A DNA stretch of 64,000 nucleotides from Candidatus Omnitrophota bacterium (GCA_022709525.1 JAKLIQ010000001.1:78709-142708); one strand, 5' to 3'. Numbered from the stretch's first letter, positions 26,731-35,691 are shown. The notes: generated by a model not told the origin, from the sequence alone. A program made the numbers and translations.

Positions 26731-27153
26731 GTGGATACAAAACTCAAGTCAGACATAGCAGAAAGTGCCGTTCTTACCCGGCTTTTGAAAGAGGGATTTA
26801 GAGTTCTTAAACCCGTAGGCGACAGGTTGCCATACGACCTGGCCTTGGACATGGGTAAAAAACTTTTCAAGATCCAAGTCAAAAGCGCGTGGGGCAAGGA
26901 CGGCATCTACAATGTTGACAGCCGGCGGACCAAAACAAACCGGCGGAAAATGTTGCGAAGTCGTTATGCTGAAGACGACTTTGATTTTGCTGTGTTGTAT
27001 ATTGAGGATCTCGGTATTTTCTATGTGATGCCGCGGAATGTTTTTGATTCTTATAAAAGCGGGATCAGAATTGTAGAAAAGATCACAAGGCAGAGAACGC
27101 CGAGATCCGGAAAATATCGCGAAGCTTGGGATTTGTTGAAAAGGGCCGCTTAA
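26731..27153 (+). CDS. Intron-encoded putative homing endonuclease, 140 aa, possibly PD-(D/E)xK-type like I-Ssp6803I of the cyanobacterial tRNA-fMet intron
   Basis: The ORF fills the peripheral 5' part of the intron. Motif LPYDLALDMGKKLFKIQVKS is PD-(D/E)xK-like. Its GTG start lies 3 nt after the 5' splice site, so the true start is uncertain. Confidence 0.5.
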   Translation: MDTKLKSDIAESAVLTRLLKEGFRVLKPVGDRLPYDLALDMGKKLFKIQVKSAWGKDGIYNVDSRRTKTNRRKMLRSRYAEDDFDFAVLYIEDLGIFYVMPRNVFDSYKSGIRIVEKITRQRTPRSGKYREAWDLLKRAA

Positions 27154-27253
27154 CCGGAAACGGTTAAGGCAACACCTGTCAAACTCGGTGAACCCTGTCA
27201 GATGGGAATACCGAACCAAGCCTTACGGATCGTTCGTGAGGAAGGCGTAGAGA

Positions 27254-28981
<1,728 letters not shown>

Positions 28982-29227
28982 GATGACAGGCCTCCTTTCA
29001 GGCAGGGATCGAAAGCGCCAGCCCGGCGCTTTGATCGAGAAACGAATAATACACCCGCCGTCAAGTGGACGGAAGCCGTTCGCCCTTTCTGTTTTGCTAT
29101 CCAATGCCGAACCAGCCATTGCGCAAGCATAGCTAATGAGCCGTTCCGGGCATATTCCGGAGGCGGCTCGGGCATCTCAAAATCTTCGATGGTCAGATCT
29201 CTGGATTTATCAGCTCTATCCCGATCC

Positions 29228-30061
29228 TTATGTGCAGGATGGATCAGAGACAGCACCTCCCTTGTAGCGTTTATAGCGCTGTTTATAAAACTCTTCTTTC
29301 TCAAACCGGCGGAGTTCTGCTTCCGCCTTGTGGATTTCGTCGTACTCGTCAACGAAGTCCTCATCAAACTCAAGATAATTGTTCAAAACGAGTGTGCTGT
29401 TCTTTTTGTTGACGAAAGTTGTTTCTCCTTCGCGTCTGAGCAGTTCCTCCATCGTTGCGAAATAGAAACACTCCGGACAATGTTCAAGTTTCTTGAACCA
29501 CTCGATCATCGATTTTCTTTCCACGAGATAGAGAAAGGCGCTGATGCCCTCGTTTTTGACCCAGGTATCTATGAGCACCCGATCATAATACCGCTTACTC
29601 TTCAGCGTCCGTTCGATCTCGATCACAAAACTGTGTTTTCGGCCATCATCAGCCAGGCCATCCGGGACCTTTCTCCGTTCCGTCTTACTTTTCAACACGC
29701 GCTCAGATGTCCAGATGAGCCCCGGAGAACGCTCTAGGATAATACGCGCATCCGTGACCCAAACATCGTGCTCGTAGATTTTCAGGTCCACTCCATCCAG
29801 CGGTCGTAGTCCGTTCGACAGATCCAGGCTCCTCAGGTGCTTTACGCCTTTGGCGGTCGTGAGATAAAGCGTGTCATGACCGACCCTTGGCTTCACGGCT
29901 TTCAAATAACCCTGTCGCATCAGGAGATTCACTCTTCTTGCCGGGACCTTGTACATGCTCAGGCTCTCGGGGAAGAACTTCTTGGCGATATGCCTCAGGA
30001 GCAGAAACTTCTGCTCAAGGCACATCTTCAGGATCTCCGAATCTCTTTCTGTAATGATCAT
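29228..30061 (-). CDS. Hypothetical protein with N-terminal winged-helix-like region (possibly replication-relaxation family)
   Basis: N-terminal helix-turn-helix-like region ILKMCLEQKFLLLRHIAKKF...LMRQGYLK and an acidic C-terminus. It lies in the recombinase island. The family assignment is a guess. Confidence 0.3.
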   Translation of the reverse strand: MIITERDSEILKMCLEQKFLLLRHIAKKFFPESLSMYKVPARRVNLLMRQGYLKAVKPRVGHDTLYLTTAKGVKHLRSLDLSNGLRPLDGVDLKIYEHDVWVTDARIILERSPGLIWTSERVLKSKTERRKVPDGLADDGRKHSFVIEIERTLKSKRYYDRVLIDTWVKNEGISAFLYLVERKSMIEWFKKLEHCPECFYFATMEELLRREGETTFVNKKNSTLVLNNYLEFDEDFVDEYDEIHKAEAELRRFEKEEFYKQRYKRYKGGAVSDPSCT

Positions 30062-30235
30062 CCGCTACTTGTTCCTTATCTGATTTCGTGAGAGACATAT
30101 TAAAAATTGATCTGACGGTGGAGCGATCTGCGTCGTGTCATTTTTGTGATCTTCAAATCTCCGGTACTTCTTGGGCTTTAGCGCCGTGTTAGCAACCAGG
30201 CTTTAGACTGGTCTTGGTTTTTATTTATAATTTCA

Positions 30236-30587
30236 AATACCCCTCATGGGACATTGAGTTAAGGAGGGGGCGTTCAACGTTTGCGCACATTTTTATACTT
30301 GAAATAAATTTTCACGAACATCGATCTGATCCATTTAACCTGTCCGAAAGATCCCAAATTCTCCGGAAACCGTTCCGCAAGAAAATCATCAATTTCCCAA
30401 ACAAGCCTCTCATGGGAGGTCGAGTTACGACATGGTCGTTCACACCAAACGAACATTTCTAAGCTTGAAATAAATTTTTCAGCGATTTTGTCCGCCTTTC
30501 TTTTACCTTGATAACCCCTCATGGGAGGTCAATTTACGACATGGGTGTGACGCTTTTGGGAAGGTTTTTAAGCTTGAAATAAAGTTT
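30236..30587 (+). repeat. Three imperfect direct repeats of 75-80 nt (30236-30311, 30405-30479, 30514-30587), iteron-like
   Basis: Each unit has the form cctcatgggaggtcRaKttacgacatgg...cttgaaataaaKttt. Peptides encoded inside are not conserved between copies, so a DNA or RNA function is more likely. Confidence 0.6.
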
Positions 30588-31027
30588 ATCGCATAGCAAC
30601 TGCCACTCGGATAAAAGCTCCGGAGGGATTAAGGTCTTGATAGGTAAGAACCCAAAGAAGGAATCTTAAAGGTCGTCTTTTGTTTATGCCCGGTCCACCA
30701 GAGGACGGATCTGTCTAACGCGATGTGGCAGATAAGAACCGGGGAAAGTTAAGAGCATGGGGACATTCAAAACGATATATTTCTTAAAAACAGAAGAAAG
30801 GATTATCCCTATCCAGCCCAGATTCATTTCAACAGCTTGCCCGAAGCCCGTCACAATGCAGCCGACCACTCCATCTCGCTCCAACAGATTATGAGAGGGA
30901 GTGGTCGGGTGCACGCAACAAGGGCGAAGGGCAAGCGCTGATTGAACTTAAGTAGGGCTGGACTGGTGGAATCCATTCCCTCACTTCATTCCACCGACCT
31001 GACCCGATCGAAATCGGTCAAAAATGT

Positions 31028-31072
31028 GAATGGTATACTCGACTTTACAAATGGTATATCGAATGGTATACT
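31028..31072 (+). promoter_or_regulatory. Three tandem (G/A)AATGGTATA(C/T) boxes upstream of fic
   Basis: gaatggtatac, aaatggtatatc and gaatggtatact lie 40-85 nt upstream of the fic ATG. Three similar boxes lie at 32138-32181. Confidence 0.5.
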
Positions 31073-31113
31073 GATGTTGAAGCTAGACCGTTAACCGAAA
31101 CAGAGGTGCAACC

Positions 31114-32151
31114 ATGAATTCCTTCAAGAATGATAATCTCGAAATGCCTTTAAGCTCGGTTTGGCTGCTGAGCGGGATCTCGGAGTACAAAGGCAAGCAG
31201 GAACTTTACACAAAGCAGGCACCGCAGGTCCTTAAAACCCTTATTGAAATGGCGCTAATCGAAAGCGCGGAATCTTCCAACCGCATCGAAGGCGTCACAG
31301 TTGACCGGGAACGTCTTAAACCGCTCGTTATCGGTCATAGCAAGCCCCGGGACCGCTCTGAAGAGGAAGTGGCCGGATACCGCAAGGCCCTCGACCTGAT
31401 TCATAAAAAATACGACACCTTGCAGATCACTCCGGATCTTATCAAGGAACTGCATCGTTTATGCCGGGGTGAATCATGGGATGCCGGGAAGTGGAAGGAG
31501 AAGGATAACGACATTATCAAAAAATACCCCGATGGCCGCGTGGAAGTGATCTATAAGCCCGTTAGCGCGGCGAAAACACCGGAGGCCATGGAGCAACTGT
31601 GCCTTAGCTACAGACATAGCATCGATCAGCTGAGATACCCTTCGCTTTACGCCATCGCCTGCCTTGTTCTTGATTTCCTCTGCGTCCATCCTTTCCGGGA
31701 CGGGAACGGCAGGGTTTCCAGGCTTCTGACATTACTGGCGCTTTATCAACACGGGTTTATGGTGGGAAAATATATCAGCATCGAGCGCATTGTGGAGCAG
31801 TCCAAGGAAACGTATTACGAGACGCTCAACAAAAGCTCACAGCAGTGGCATGAGGCCAAACATGATGTCCTTCCGTGGTTTAATTATTTCCTGGGGACCA
31901 TTACCGCTGCCTACAAGGAATTCGAAGAACGCGCCAGCCATGCAAGCCCGGAACGGGGCGCCAAGACCGGCATTGTCGAGGCCGCGGTTGATCGGCAGCT
32001 TGGAGAATTCAGTATTTCCAATATTGAGCAAGAGTGTCCGAATGTCAGCCGGGTCATGATCAAAAAAGTTCTCAGCCAGATGAGCAACGCCAAAAAGATC
32101 AAATGCCTCGGCAAGGGCAAGTCAGCCAAGTGGTTGCGAATGGTATCCTAA
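31114..32151 (+). CDS. fic: Fic family protein (class II, with an internal inhibitory SxxxEG helix and a C-terminal winged-helix)
   Basis: Fic motif HPFRDGNGRVSR; inhibitory motif SAESSNRIEGV near the N-terminus. Confidence 0.9.
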   Translation: MNSFKNDNLEMPLSSVWLLSGISEYKGKQELYTKQAPQVLKTLIEMALIESAESSNRIEGVTVDRERLKPLVIGHSKPRDRSEEEVAGYRKALDLIHKKYDTLQITPDLIKELHRLCRGESWDAGKWKEKDNDIIKKYPDGRVEVIYKPVSAAKTPEAMEQLCLSYRHSIDQLRYPSLYAIACLVLDFLCVHPFRDGNGRVSRLLTLLALYQHGFMVGKYISIERIVEQSKETYYETLNKSSQQWHEAKHDVLPWFNYFLGTITAAYKEFEERASHASPERGAKTGIVEAAVDRQLGEFSISNIEQECPNVSRVMIKKVLSQMSNAKKIKCLGKGKSAKWLRMVS

Positions 32152-32181
32152 GTCTCGCGATGGTATATCAAATGGGATATT
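32138..32181 (+). promoter_or_regulatory. Second set of three ATGGTATA-like boxes, overlapping the fic stop and preceding nuc
   Basis: gaatggtatcc, gatggtatatc and aaatgggatatt lie immediately upstream of the ATG at 32187. Confidence 0.45.
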
Positions 32182-32186
32182 AACGA

Positions 32187-32723
32187 GTGCACATGCGAAA
32201 AAACATCTGCTGTATAGTTGTTCTGATCATTATTTTTCTCTCCATCCCCGCATCGTTGCAAGCCAAACAAACGGCCACCGATGAGCAGGTTTATTTTTCC
32301 CCTAAAGGTGGATGCACAGAGGCCATTGTCAAGAATCTGGATCAGGCCGAAAGATATGTGCTTGTTCAGGCATATTCCTTCACGTCGAAGCCCATTGCCG
32401 AAGCTCTCGTCGACGCGCACAAGCGCGGCGTGAAAGTAAAAGTGCTTTTGGACAAGAGTCAGCGGAATGGCAAAGGGAGCAAGCTCTCCCTATTGGCTGA
32501 GGCCGGGATACCTGTCAGCATTGACACCAAACACTCGATTGCTCACAATAAGGTTATGATTATCGACGGCGTTACTGTAATCACGGGTTCTTTCAATTTT
32601 ACCAGCGCCGCCGAAGACAAAAACGCCGAAAATCTTTTAGTCGTTAGAGATAAGGTTATCGCGAGGAAATACCGCAATAACTGGAACAAACATCAGAAGC
32701 ATTCCGAGCTGTATCAGATATAA
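32187..32723 (+). CDS. nuc: Secreted phospholipase-D superfamily endonuclease (Nuc-like)
   Basis: Signal peptide; HxK(x4)D motif IAHNKVMIIDG; size and organization like plasmid Nuc. Confidence 0.8.
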   Translation: MHMRKNICCIVVLIIIFLSIPASLQAKQTATDEQVYFSPKGGCTEAIVKNLDQAERYVLVQAYSFTSKPIAEALVDAHKRGVKVKVLLDKSQRNGKGSKLSLLAEAGIPVSIDTKHSIAHNKVMIIDGVTVITGSFNFTSAAEDKNAENLLVVRDKVIARKYRNNWNKHQKHSELYQI

Positions 32724-32801
32724 AATATGCGGCGAGATAAAAACCGATGTATTCCTTGAATGACAGAGATAGAGGAATTGAAAATGAGGAGGAAATGCCA
32801 A

Positions 32802-33530
32802 ATGAAAAAAGCGATTTTAGCGTTGTGTGGGATAATGTTATTAATGCTCGAAACATTTACGCCCTGCTGTGTTGCCGAGGAAAGCAAAAGATATACGGAT
32901 GAATTTTTATTCGTCAATTCTTATCTTGAGTGCTTAGAAAATTATATATCTATTCAAACATATGATGGTCTTATGGTAACAGGAAAGGCCAATTATTCTT
33001 CCGAAGAAGTTGTCAACAGCGCTTTTATGAAACAATTAAAAAAAGAACAGGAATTCATTTCGGAAATGATTCGTGCAATGGGAAAATATTCCGATTCTCC
33101 GGTAGATAGCATCAAGAACGCCTCCAATACAATTTTGGAAAAATATCAGAAAATGCAAGCTCTGAACACCAAAGCGCAAGATGCATATTTTCATGTGAAG
33201 ACGGGGCAATTTAAGGCGGGCATTTTGACCGGCAGCGAACTTTTCGATGAAAAGCAAGCTATTGAAAGCGGCATGTTTTTTGAGGAAGAAAATTTAATGA
33301 GACAAATTTTGTTTCCCAAAGGTAGCTCTGTAATGAAAATAACTGCCGAAGAGAAAAAACAGCTTCAAGAAAAAATAAGAAGCTTAAAACAGATCAGCCT
33401 TGCCAAGGAGCATTCTATTGGCGAAGGAGAGTATTTAGTGGCCGAGGGAGGACAGTTTCTCAAATTTTTTTTACAGGCTTTCCAACGATTTATAGATATT
33501 AATTTTCCTTGTTTGAAAACAGTAGCGTGA
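32802..33530 (+). CDS. Secreted hypothetical protein, low GC
   Basis: Signal peptide MKKAILALCGIMLLMLETFTPCCVA. RBS gaggagg lies 9 nt upstream. The alternative start is 32784. Confidence 0.4.
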   Translation: MKKAILALCGIMLLMLETFTPCCVAEESKRYTDEFLFVNSYLECLENYISIQTYDGLMVTGKANYSSEEVVNSAFMKQLKKEQEFISEMIRAMGKYSDSPVDSIKNASNTILEKYQKMQALNTKAQDAYFHVKTGQFKAGILTGSELFDEKQAIESGMFFEEENLMRQILFPKGSSVMKITAEEKKQLQEKIRSLKQISLAKEHSIGEGEYLVAEGGQFLKFFLQAFQRFIDINFPCLKTVA

Positions 33531-33627
33531 AATAGCTGTGGTGTTTTAGTTCCGCTTATGCATCGCTTATTTTAAAACGAAACTCCAGAATTTTGAGCGA
33601 GGTAGGCCCAAAAGGAGATGCTATAAA

Positions 33628-34311
33628 ATGACTATGGAAGCGCACTGTTTCCAAAACGTTCAATGGATTAAATTTATCTTGCCGATCTTTGCGACATTTC
33701 TTGGCGCTTGGCTCGCTTTTTTCTTGCAAAATCGTAGGGATGCTAAAAAACAGGAAAAAACCAACTATGGAGTACTTTTAAAAACACAGGCGTTATTTTA
33801 TGAATATTTTGAAGCTATTTATTCGGTCAAAAAAGATTTTTTAGACCAGCATGCAAAAGACGCAGAGAGATCAACAAGGGTTAAGCATATTAGTCTTTGC
33901 CAAAAGTTCTCTGAGCTTGATTTCGAAGGCATATCCTTTATCCTTACAACAAAAAATCCGGACTTGTTTGGTGATATTGTATGCACCTATAGAAAGTGCG
34001 TTTCGGCTATAGAAGCCATTAATGAGCGCAATAAGCAATACGGAAAATACAGCGGAGGGATTGCCAAAAGTATCGATTTGGGAAGTGGCAAATCTCAGGT
34101 AGATTTAATATTTCTTAGAGATTTTACAGACATTATGTATAGGGAAACGGATCAGGTGCTACAACGCATTAAACAAATCGACGGTGAATTACAGCAATTC
34201 ATAAAAGAAAAATTTAAAGGGAAACATGCCCTGAAAGTTACTTTTGTCGAGACTGCGACGCAATGCGCCAAAGGAAATGCAGACGGAGGCGGTCATGAAA
34301 CCGTCGCTTAA
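33628..34311 (+). CDS. Membrane-anchored hypothetical protein (one N-terminal TM helix)
   Basis: RBS aaggag; TM segment FILPIFATFLGAWLAFFL; no recognizable domain. Confidence 0.4.
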   Translation: MTMEAHCFQNVQWIKFILPIFATFLGAWLAFFLQNRRDAKKQEKTNYGVLLKTQALFYEYFEAIYSVKKDFLDQHAKDAERSTRVKHISLCQKFSELDFEGISFILTTKNPDLFGDIVCTYRKCVSAIEAINERNKQYGKYSGGIAKSIDLGSGKSQVDLIFLRDFTDIMYRETDQVLQRIKQIDGELQQFIKEKFKGKHALKVTFVETATQCAKGNADGGGHETVA

Positions 34312-35161
34312 AAATAAGATATTAAACTATATCGCTATGGGGTTTATTTTTTCCCCATGTTTATTGCCCCCTTTTCTTTGGATTAGATTGCTTGCGGTTG
34401 ATATCGATGTTAAGTTGAAAATAATGTGCCTTGCCTTTTTCAGCGCCGTCGTTCCTCTTATGATTGTCATTCTCGGTTTTGCCTGGGTTTGTTTTTTTGC
34501 AGTTTGCCTGTTCTTTAAAAATGTTTTCGACGAAACATTTCGTAATAAGCATGATTCATATCGAGATAATGATAAATGGCTCAGTGAAACCTTCAGTGAT
34601 GTTCATAAGCTTTTTAATAAGTGGGATAAATCAGAGAGGTGGAAAAAAACCAACGCAACGCTTCTGTGTGTCTTTTTTTTATCGGGAGCAGGAATTTCTT
34701 GGATTGATTTCGACCATAGAATTAAAGTGAAAACCGATAATCTTTCAAACATTGTTTCCATGAACATCATTGGGGATATCGATTTGCCAGTTTCTAAGCA
34801 AGGCCTTGTAAAACAGCGTGGTCTCCCAAAATCTGTTGATGTCCGATACCGGGGCGATGGGAAGAAATACAAGTTTGAAACATTGAGTTATGACTGGGCG
34901 GCCGGGCAAATGGAGGTTGTTTTCGTCAATGACAACTATGCGGATGGAATTGTTCGATATAAGCCGACGGATTTAAGCGTAAAAGTTTTGTTGCGTGATG
35001 TGTCGCACGTAAAGCAAAAGCCTTTGAAGTCTTATACCATTAGCGTCGTGAATACTAACGGCAAAACTTTATTAATTCGTGTCCAAAAAAATCAAAAAAT
35101 AAGTTCGATCACATATTTTGGTTCTTCCGCAAAGAAAGGGGCGATAAGACTGCTCCGATAA
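34295..35161 (+). CDS. Polytopic membrane protein with a C-terminal beta-rich soluble domain, hypothetical
   Basis: It overlaps the upstream ORF by 17 nt. GGAGG lies 5 nt before the ATG. There are 4-5 predicted TM helices. Confidence 0.4.
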   Translation: MKPSLKNKILNYIAMGFIFSPCLLPPFLWIRLLAVDIDVKLKIMCLAFFSAVVPLMIVILGFAWVCFFAVCLFFKNVFDETFRNKHDSYRDNDKWLSETFSDVHKLFNKWDKSERWKKTNATLLCVFFLSGAGISWIDFDHRIKVKTDNLSNIVSMNIIGDIDLPVSKQGLVKQRGLPKSVDVRYRGDGKKYKFETLSYDWAAGQMEVVFVNDNYADGIVRYKPTDLSVKVLLRDVSHVKQKPLKSYTISVVNTNGKTLLIRVQKNQKISSITYFGSSAKKGAIRLLR

Positions 35162-35214
35162 GGGATCATTTTCGATATAACTATCAAAGAAGTTGTTTTT
35201 ATCTGGAGCAAGTT

Positions 35215-35691
35215 ATGGGTCATTGGGATCGCAAGAATGTTCCGCAAAAAGGATGGGAATGCATTGATTTCTATGATTTATGTGCCGATGCGAATGAAGT
35301 TTATGCAACATGTGAAATGTGTGGGCAAGAGCGAATACGATATGTTCATGTAATGCGGCATCCAGATTTTTATGACGACTTGTTGGTTGGCTGTGTATGT
35401 GCCGGAAAAATGTCAGATGACTATGTCAATCCTGAAAAACACGAAAAGATTCTGAGTAATCGATCAAAACGTCGAAAAAGTTGGCTGAGCCGAACTTGGC
35501 GAGTATCGGCAAAGGGTAATGATTTTCTTAATGTTAAGGGGCATAACGTAACCATTTTTCCAGCAAAGTATCGATTAGGCCATTGGTGTTTTAAGATAGA
35601 CGATGATTTTAATCAAAATACCTATGAAGACAAAAATCGCGCAAAATTGGCGGCATTTGACTTGCTGCAAAAATATAACGAAAAAATTTAG
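35215..35691 (+). CDS. Cys-rich (CxxC...CxC) zinc-finger-like hypothetical protein
   Basis: CEMCGQ...GCVCAGK cysteine cluster. It is the last gene of an apparent three-gene operon. Confidence 0.4.
   Translation: MGHWDRKNVPQKGWECIDFYDLCADANEVYATCEMCGQERIRYVHVMRHPDFYDDLLVGCVCAGKMSDDYVNPEKHEKILSNRSKRRKSWLSRTWRVSAKGNDFLNVKGHNVTIFPAKYRLGHWCFKIDDDFNQNTYEDKNRAKLAAFDLLQKYNEKI

Follow-up and report, generated by a model that had tools for sequence, protein, structure and literature searches.

Triplicate direct-repeat boxes beside a fic gene of Candidatus Omnitrophota: candidate sites of the Fic winged helix

Two arrays of boxes around fic

We analyzed a window of 64,000 nucleotides (64 kb) from the genome of a Candidatus Omnitrophota bacterium (GCA_022709525.1 JAKLIQ010000001.1:78709-142708), focusing on two sets of short repeats that lie on either side of fic. 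This gene encodes a predicted Fic AMP-transferase with a C-terminal winged helix, belongs to an island of about 9 kb, and is followed by nuc, the gene of a predicted secreted nuclease (Table 1). The DNA sites of Fic enzymes carrying a wHTH (winged helix-turn-helix) domain are barely defined, and the role of DNA binding in these proteins is debated. Binding to their own promoters is known from two or three studied cases, including CccR (PMC9755527) and SoFic (bioRxiv 10.64898/2026.07.09.737422).

Direct reading of the sequence shows that each array consists of three 11-bp boxes of the type AATGGTATAYT, all of them on the plus strand, i.e., the strand of fic. The boxes follow each other with start-to-start spacings of 21 and 12 nt in the 5' array and of 20 and 12 nt in the 3' array, and the two arrays can be aligned over 46 nt with a single indel. 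Between the 5' array and the fic ATG (31114), there are 41 nt. The 3' array starts within the final codons of fic (cga atg gta tcc taa) and leaves 5 nt to a GTG at 32187 and 11 nt to the ATG at 32193, which is the nuc start proposed by other gene callers. The 8-mer ATGGTATA occurs five times in the window when 0.32 copies are expected, and none of 100 shuffles reached five. Four of these copies (31030, 31051, 31063, and 32160) are inside the arrays; the fifth, isolated at 35033 on the minus strand, is no more than chance predicts. When the complete 11-mer was searched on both strands with at most one mismatch, there were five sites in the 64 kb, every one in the two arrays, and the sixth box (GATGGTATATC) has two mismatches. 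Hence, the boxes are real and restricted to the flanks of fic. The initial annotation, which had proposed the motif search, had placed triplicate boxes upstream of fic and over its end and had judged their number to exceed chance; both points are borne out.

We considered two extensions of this picture and rejected both. A regulon within the window is not apparent, since there are no further boxes at up to one mismatch and the sites at up to two mismatches number 23 when 26.8 are expected. Nor did we find the remains of another fic gene in front of the 5' array: tblastn of Fic against positions 30062-31113 gave nothing significant, and only the 46-nt array is duplicated.

The product of fic matches Pfam PF02661 with 54.6 bits (cut-off of 24). 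The columns of its catalytic motif, HPFRDGNGRVSR (H192-P-F-R-D-G-N-G-R-V-S-R203), are invariant in 24 homologues, and so is, in the alignment, an inhibitory motif, S55-N-R-I-E59-G60 (SNRIEG), found N-terminal to the Fic core. Inhibitory helices of class II have the motif (S/T)xxxE(G/N) (PMC9755527), and the position of SNRIEG thus indicates an auto-inhibited protein of class II. By both motifs, Fic appears to be a member of the class II Fic/Fido AMP-transferases, with AMP transfer as its predicted activity. The model of Fic made with AlphaFold2 is confident only for residues 281-345, and we used this C-terminal domain alone. It comprises helices at 283-293, 301-307, and 313-325 and strands at 298-300, 329-331, and 339-342, with values of the predicted local distance difference test (pLDDT) between 72 and 88. 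The closest solved structure is PDB 8UQU, named "Fido domain-containing protein" (E 1.6e-94 over Fic residues 19-342), and the SoFic-type chains of the PDB only reach E ~1e-7. The 8UQU protein includes the wHTH, with a helix sequence SRDMVRLVL; our literature search found no paper on it, and we know of no complex of it with DNA.

Table 1. Position of the arrays, of fic, and of neighbouring genes in the window
Feature	Position	Strand	Basis or remark
5' array	31029-31072	+	direct reading
5' box 1, AATGGTATACT	31029..31039	+	kept in relatives L089-L095 and L162 (80-93% identical)
TTTACA hexamer, -35-like, between boxes 1 and 2	31044..31049	+	promoter scan
5' box 2, AATGGTATATC, between the -35 and -10 hexamers	31050..31060	+	
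5' box 3, AATGGTATACT, contains extended -10 TGgTATACT (hexamer 31067-31072)	31062..31072	+	
fic, predicted class II Fic AMP-transferase with C-terminal winged helix	31114..32151	+	Pfam PF02661, motifs, PDB 8UQU homologue
Winged-helix coding region, residues 283-345 (H1, strand, H2, H3, two wing strands)	31960..32148	+	AlphaFold2
Recognition helix H3, residues 313-325	32050..32088	+	V314 (32053-32055), K318 (32065-32067), S321 (32074-32076)
3' array	32139-32181	+	direct reading
3' box 1, AATGGTATCCT, over fic codons M-V-S-stop	32139..32149	+	
3' box 2, GATGGTATATC	32159..32169	+	two mismatches
3' box 3, AATGGGATATT	32171..32181	+	one mismatch; possible weak -10-like GATATT at 32176-32181, no match in the promoter scan
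nuc, predicted secreted PLD-family nuclease (NucT/DrmC-like), 176 aa	32193..32723	+	Pfam PLDc_2 4.8e-29; NCBIfam and PADLOC matches
Large serine recombinase	27254-29119	-	
MobC-like replication-relaxation protein	29228-30061	-	

Box arrays and recognition helices across the Fic subfamily

To place the arrays in their family, we gathered 80 loci from reference genomes and 80 from metagenomes, whose homologues are 45-94% identical, and searched the 131 non-redundant complete ones, which come from many phyla and encode homologues 45-100% identical. A triplet was defined as three similar 11-mers spaced by 18-22 and then 11-13 nt, with a score of at least 25, and was searched in windows of 155 nt upstream of the start and around the stop of fic. 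We found one beside fic in 117 of the 131 loci (~90%), to be compared with 11 of 3681 control windows (0.3%). Hence, the boxes are conserved in homologous loci. In 100 loci the triplet lies 3', covering the last codons or the stop, and in 21 just 5' of the start; the four loci with both are two copies of the window's island, L089, and L090. In the loci of the relatives, the arrays are invariably on the fic strand and the 5' arrays stop 5-50 nt before the start of fic. As the triplet is found beside fic whatever lies downstream, the array belongs to fic and not to the pair of fic and nuc. A site architecture, three direct 11-bp boxes, is thereby defined for a very large subfamily spanning several phyla (about 8000 sequences at E <1e-20 in one search), and our literature search turned up no earlier account of such threefold direct repeats at Fic genes.

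The frame in which box 1 lies with respect to the stop codon is not the same in all lineages. Some proteins end in ...KRMVY*, which runs through box 1, others in ...KKI*, just before it, and others in ...RKRDNKS*, which ends in box 2. The frame thus varies while the DNA is kept, so that what is constrained is the DNA, not the peptide. In some lineages, box 1 and an inverted copy that follows it form a perfect palindrome, e.g., AAAGGGTAATTACCCTTT (L029, L030, L033, L037, L056, L058, L159, and others). At up to one mismatch, this palindrome is present in 14 of 115 loci and in 1 of 344 controls, and it is absent from the box type of the window.

One might argue that the boxes are due to chance, are forced by coding, or are an RNA element of the mRNA, since 3' box 1 sits inside codons and the palindrome could give an RNA hairpin. 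We give this reading next to no credence. The counts far exceed both the shuffles and the control windows, the frame of the box shifts relative to the stop codon as the DNA stays, and the 5' arrays are upstream of the predicted transcription start. No Rfam family reached its gathering score in the window, and nothing credible was found between 30050 and 31120. As a sole explanation, it is effectively refuted by the shuffles, the controls, and the co-variation with the recognition helix.

This co-variation is the main argument for the identity of the protein that reads the boxes. The family consensus is AANNNGNTANT, but its variants differ by lineage and each comes with its own sequence of helix 3. 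The box AATGGTATAYT is paired with SRVMIKKVL, AATRGGGTAAT with SRDMIKIIF, AACGTGATAAT with SRPMIRVVLE, AAGAGGGTAAT with SRDMIRRVL, GTAAGGGTAGT with GREWIRSLL, AACTAGGTATT with GLDLIRQIL, AATTGGGTAAT with SVDMIRRVL, AATGTGGTAAT with SRDMIRVVMNRW, and AATWGGCTAMT with SxQLIKKVL. Across all lineages, column 314 of the protein shares most information with box positions 6-7, and residue 336, in the wing, with position 3.

To control for relatedness, we took 52 proteins with at least 64% identity and three box types. Among them, residue 314 alone gives the box type without error, V or I going with GGTATA, D or E with GGGTAA, and P with GTGATAAT. It carries 100% of the information on box type, residue 321 carries 97%, and residue 318 carries 83%, and the informative positions are mostly beyond residue 300. 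In the AlphaFold2 model, these three residues are at i, i+4, and i+7 of helix 3, and therefore on one face of the helix. The N-terminal parts (residues 1-280) tell a different story, with an identity of 0.80 in pairs of the same box type and of 0.79 in pairs of different types. Of the 52 proteins, 20 differ in box type from their closest neighbour by N-terminal sequence, and none from their closest neighbour by C-terminal sequence. The association between box and helix does not, then, come from the shared ancestry of whole genes, and winged helix and adjacent boxes appear to have been exchanged together between N-terminal backgrounds. As box type tracks the recognition helix independently of N-terminal kinship, the Fic winged helix is very probably the reader of the boxes, on evidence that is indirect and strong. 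The loci amount to a natural table of specificities, in which at least nine helices are paired with their boxes and 314, 318, and 321 are the code positions, and to a ready-made supply of orthogonal pairs of protein and DNA.

The initial annotation had named two candidate regulators, the C-terminal winged helix of Fic and the winged-helix protein encoded upstream, and had proposed that one of them co-regulates fic and nuc through the two arrays. The first candidate is the one predicted by the box types, which co-vary perfectly with residue 314 and nearly so with residues 318 and 321. The second is MobC-like, and outside the copies of the island it was found only in the related island L092 among the loci examined, so it cannot explain boxes that are present family-wide. 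Two arrays in front of two genes and a winged-helix-type MobC-like gene 1 kb upstream, which also accompanies fic in L092, would suit operators of another regulator, be it this protein or a host factor, acting on both genes. We nevertheless find this very improbable. The box type goes with the Fic recognition helix and not with the neighbourhood, the MobC-like gene is limited to the island and one relative, nuc is missing from all other loci, and neighbouring genes are unrelated between loci.

The relation between the arrays and nuc can be judged from the same loci, among which a PLD nuclease adjoins fic only in copies of the window's island. The 3' array is found in 100 of the 131 loci whatever follows it, and hence the two arrays do not exist to co-regulate fic and nuc. 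We also rejected the 3' array as a promoter or operator of the next gene in general, as an open reading frame (ORF) starts no more than 40 nt from it in only 25 of 93 loci, and what follows is unrelated from one locus to the next. What stands of the initial interpretation is the operator-like character of the boxes and Fic as their reader; the co-regulation of the two genes is incidental at best. For annotation purposes, the pairing of fic with nuc in this island is incidental too.

Possible roles of the arrays at fic and nuc

The best of the promoter-like sites near fic falls on the 5' array. According to the promoter scan, this site has TTTACA (at 31044), a spacer of 17 nt, and TATACT (ending at 31072) preceded by TG, with 10 of 12 matches. 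All eight relatives with a 5' array (80-93% identity) have TTTACA or TTTACG at the place of the -35 hexamer, and the equivalent hexamer is not conserved in 3' arrays of the same box type. The overlap between array and predicted promoter fits an operator, as had been suggested from the boxes alone; it is the layout of an autorepressor and makes autorepression likely.

From this layout, we infer how Fic might bind and act. The recognition helix (residues 313-325) would read each 11-bp box, and its residues 314, 318, and 321 would determine the bases that vary. The boxes are in direct orientation, with a distance of 12 bp from box 2 to box 3 and of about two helical turns from box 1, upstream, to these two, which implies that at least three winged helices would bind head-to-tail and roughly on one face of the DNA. 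The -35 hexamer is between boxes 1 and 2, box 2 falls in the promoter spacer, and box 3 corresponds to the extended -10, such that bound Fic should exclude RNA polymerase and thereby repress its own, potentially toxic, gene. In summary, we consider it likely that the boxes are the sites of Fic's own winged helix, with the 5' array as an operator of autorepression and the 3' array as the copy typical of the family, here in decay. Taken on its own, autorepression of fic by the 5' array seems reasonably probable to us.

Several observations weigh against this. No promoter consensus is established for Omnitrophota, and the promoter scan gave no promoter-like match in the 3' array of the window. 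The full-length model of Fic has a mean pLDDT of 47 and is poor outside the C-terminal domain, too poor for fold searches or for reasoning on oligomers, and thus gives no oligomer geometry. Around 100 of the 131 relatives have their sole array at the 3' end, and in loci of this type the 300 nt in front of fic contain cognate boxes at background level only (8 matches in ~95 loci). Hence, the array cannot serve in general to occlude the promoter, and its use as a 5' operator may be peculiar to the clade of the window. Unexpectedly, the rule across the subfamily is a site that normally overlaps the stop codon at the gene's 3' end, a position in which it is unable to be a classical operator of fic.

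The closest precedent for the 5' array is CccR of Yersinia pseudotuberculosis, a Fic toxin and transcriptional autorepressor whose footprints cover its own -35/-10 region (PMC9755527). Like the Fic of the window, CccR is a class II enzyme with a C-terminal HTH or winged helix. Its repeated boxes of 10-11 bp, A/T-rich and GATAAT-like, overlap the -35/-10 region of its own promoter, as those of the window and its clade do with a predicted one, and lineage L070 in our set carries boxes of the GATAAGATAATC type. However, CccR has two inverted repeats 26 bp apart and binds as a symmetric dimer. Such an operator of two inverted half-sites is not what we found in the window, where three direct repeats, spaced by ~20 and 12, are on one strand. 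The arrays of most relatives are at the 3' end over the stop codon, unlike those of CccR, and no secretion-system context is evident among the ORFs annotated here. Sequence relatedness to the CccR group is low, as judged from the SoFic-type chains (E ~1e-7, compared with 1.6e-94 for 8UQU).

SoFic of Shewanella oneidensis binds within 100 bp upstream of its own start codon, and autorepression has been proposed for it (bioRxiv 10.64898/2026.07.09.737422); the name is also that of an anti-phage defence family (PMC12249575). It shares with the protein of the window a Fic core followed by a C-terminal winged helix, and the PADLOC model of SoFic matches the latter with E 1.2e-37. It is not an orthologue, as the NCBIfam equivalog NF046030 gives 48 bits for a cut-off of 550, and SoFic's own site has no definition at the level of a motif. 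A further difference is that no small antitoxin-like gene such as AS1 comes after the fic of the window, the next gene being a nuclease specific to the island. More generally, a conserved small partner gene beside fic, of the toxin-antitoxin or SoFic-AS1 type, was not found among the loci, whose downstream genes are unrelated.

When E. coli genomes were searched with a proteobacterial fic query for polymorphism in the presence of the gene, there was no match, and searches of plasmid and phage collections only returned distant Fic relatives, with at most 47% identity. More distant Fic-wHTH genes (34-47% identity) are preceded by boxes in inverted repeat that cover promoter-like hexamers, as in CccR. 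They are carried by plasmids of Acidovorax, Clostridium, Lactiplantibacillus, and Exiguobacterium (L169-L172) and by viral contigs (L176, L177, and L181). Autoregulation thus looks general among Fic-wHTH genes, and the fic of the window probably works like these autoregulators and is one of them. What is new relative to the known ones is the use of three direct repeats, their usual position at the 3' end over the stop codon, and the modular co-inheritance of domain and site. For the arrangement of direct repeats, an analogy of mechanism only can be drawn with winged helices of the OmpR/PhoB type, e.g., PhoP of M. tuberculosis, which bind direct repeats head-to-tail about one helical turn apart (PMC4832192). 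A further repeat is often near the pair in these systems too, but here there is neither a receiver domain nor homology, and the period is 12 bp and not 11, with an additional box ~20 bp upstream.

The 3' array of the window is less well preserved than the 5' array, with 4 mismatches in 33 positions compared with 1 in 33. It is more degenerate still in L091, L092, L094, and L095. In L089 and L090, where Fic is 93% identical and the cognate 5' array is kept, it has been replaced by an array of a foreign type, joined inside box 1. One array per gene, on either side, seems to be under selection. In the clade of the window, the 3' array would then be redundant and decaying. As the promoter scan found no good match in front of nuc itself and there is no terminator-like site between fic and nuc, the latter is probably co-transcribed with fic and shares the 5' operator, to which any repression by Fic would extend. 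This sharing would be a by-product of the island's layout. We find it doubtful that the 3' array has any role for nuc; at most, Fic bound there might act as a roadblock, or the GATATT of box 3 might serve as the start of a weak internal promoter.

In another reading, the array would be a cofactor made of DNA, with the enzyme and not transcription under its control. By assembling Fic oligomers or sequestering them, cognate DNA beside the gene would turn AMPylation on or off. In CbFic2 of Coxiella burnetii, also a Fic-wHTH enzyme, DNA binding changes the oligomeric state and the catalytic mode, stimulating the enzyme and switching it between AMPylation and deAMPylation (PMC10628234), which offers a possible rationale for an array away from the promoter. 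Both the activity and the DNA binding of SoFic require dimerisation (bioRxiv 10.64898/2026.07.09.737422). This reading would account for a single array being enough, on whichever side of the gene it lies: one is kept per gene on either side, the 3' copy decays (window, L091, L092, L094, and L095) or is replaced (L089 and L090) when a 5' array is present, and in most loci the array is unable to act on the fic promoter. Still, we think it unlikely. For this subfamily, it would be purely inferential. The DNA binding of CbFic2 looked largely independent of sequence, whereas the specificity seen here appears sharp and co-evolving. Moreover, few molecules fit on one chromosomal site, and the perfect overlap with the promoter in the window would not be required.

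Traces of mobility and the surrounding island

The loci also carry traces of mobility, and the triplet could primarily be a cis site of a mobile or recombining fic cassette, e.g., for attachment, as a junction, or for binding of the ends, with promoter overlap as a secondary matter. This is compatible with binding by Fic. In around 24 of 120 loci, the leader, fic, and the triplet are flanked by direct repeats of host DNA of 17-220 nt with 90-100% identity, several of them without a difference. Examples are duplications of 30 nt in L096 and L136 (100% identity), 32 nt in L025, 48 nt within the 3' end of hsdM in L088, 27 nt of the start of hsdR in L142, and 144 nt of the start of hsdM in L032. 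In addition, nearly identical genes have the array either 5' or 3', as if permuted, the module of wHTH and boxes has been swapped between N-terminal backgrounds, and L159 and L174 contain fic genes that are nested or in tandem. Breakpoints also fall at the boxes: in L089 and L090 the foreign-type 3' array is joined inside box 1, and the homology between the window and the related island L092 ends at 32142, i.e., inside the first 3' box.

Other observations make us regard this reading as rather unlikely. No recombinase or transposase is conserved near fic, and the other loci lack the serine recombinase of the island. The duplications vary in length and are outside the boxes, and some of them are genomic repeat elements (L123 and L145). 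The site is made of direct repeats and not of inverted repeats of the attC kind, and Fic domains are not, to our knowledge, able to cut or join DNA. A comparison of the window's 5' array and leader with the right end and left leader of relatives of the 3' type, made as a test of circular permutation, speaks for neither side, the similarity outside the boxes and the ribosome-binding region being too weak.

The cassette and cofactor readings are not mutually exclusive. Combined, they describe fic and its triplet as a self-contained, horizontally moving cassette in which the domain has its own site next to it and the array is a tether or allosteric switch as well as a recombination junction. We hold this combination to be improbable. 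The site starts in the last codons of its own reader domain, and if the combination were true, the pair would thereby be exchangeable as one specificity module. Newly made Fic would be loaded in cis on the DNA encoding it, with the DNA acting like an antitoxin or cofactor, and the arrays would be the junctions for recombination, for insertion with long duplications, and for tandem stacking. The use of the array as promoter and operator in the window would then be one derived outcome. Control of transcription, control of the enzyme, and marking of a mobile cassette can now be directly tested against each other.

Some features of individual loci may be mentioned here. Duplications around a short leader, fic, triplet, and short tail are also present in L017, L125, L139, and others, several of them in the ends of type I restriction genes, and their variable length matches no standard transposition mechanism. 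L159 has a second fic cassette beside a copy truncated at its 5' end, L174 has a second array after fic, and L138 has two tandem arrays upstream. In the viral contigs L185 and L186, the fic frame is 75% identical over residues 1-111 and is followed by unrelated sequence, an apparent fusion or disruption of fic after the region of the inhibitory helix.

In the island itself, the MobC-like gene and fic are separated by a non-coding stretch of 1 kb. Between 30240 and 30600, this stretch contains three copies of a unit of ~66 nt (CCYCTCATGGGAGGTC..ACGACATGG ... TAAGCTTGAAATAAA), 166 and 109 nt apart. The stretch, which is conserved in L092, may be the transfer or replication origin of the mobilisable island. 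A strong hairpin follows at 30857-30913, with arms of 21 nt that are 90% complementary and a loop of 15 nt, and it has no credible match in Rfam. Downstream of nuc, a block of low GC content (32760-35691; 37-43%, compared with ~53% elsewhere) forms the cargo of the island. It contains four ORFs without a match in Pfam, NCBIfam, or PADLOC, one of which has an N-terminus resembling a signal peptide.

At the left edge of the island, positions 26731-27384 resemble a tRNA gene split by a group I intron with a homing endonuclease of the I-Ssp6803I type. This region comprises an ORF for a PDDEXK_5 endonuclease (26731-27153; Pfam 1e-38), a match to a group I intron just below threshold (27125-27309; 45.7 bits for a threshold of 50, E 1.2e-10), and a tRNA-like match (27321-27384; E 0.019) where ARAGORN reports no tRNA. 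The ORF of the serine recombinase (621 aa) overlaps the intron region and is probably over-extended, since other gene callers give a protein of 575 aa.

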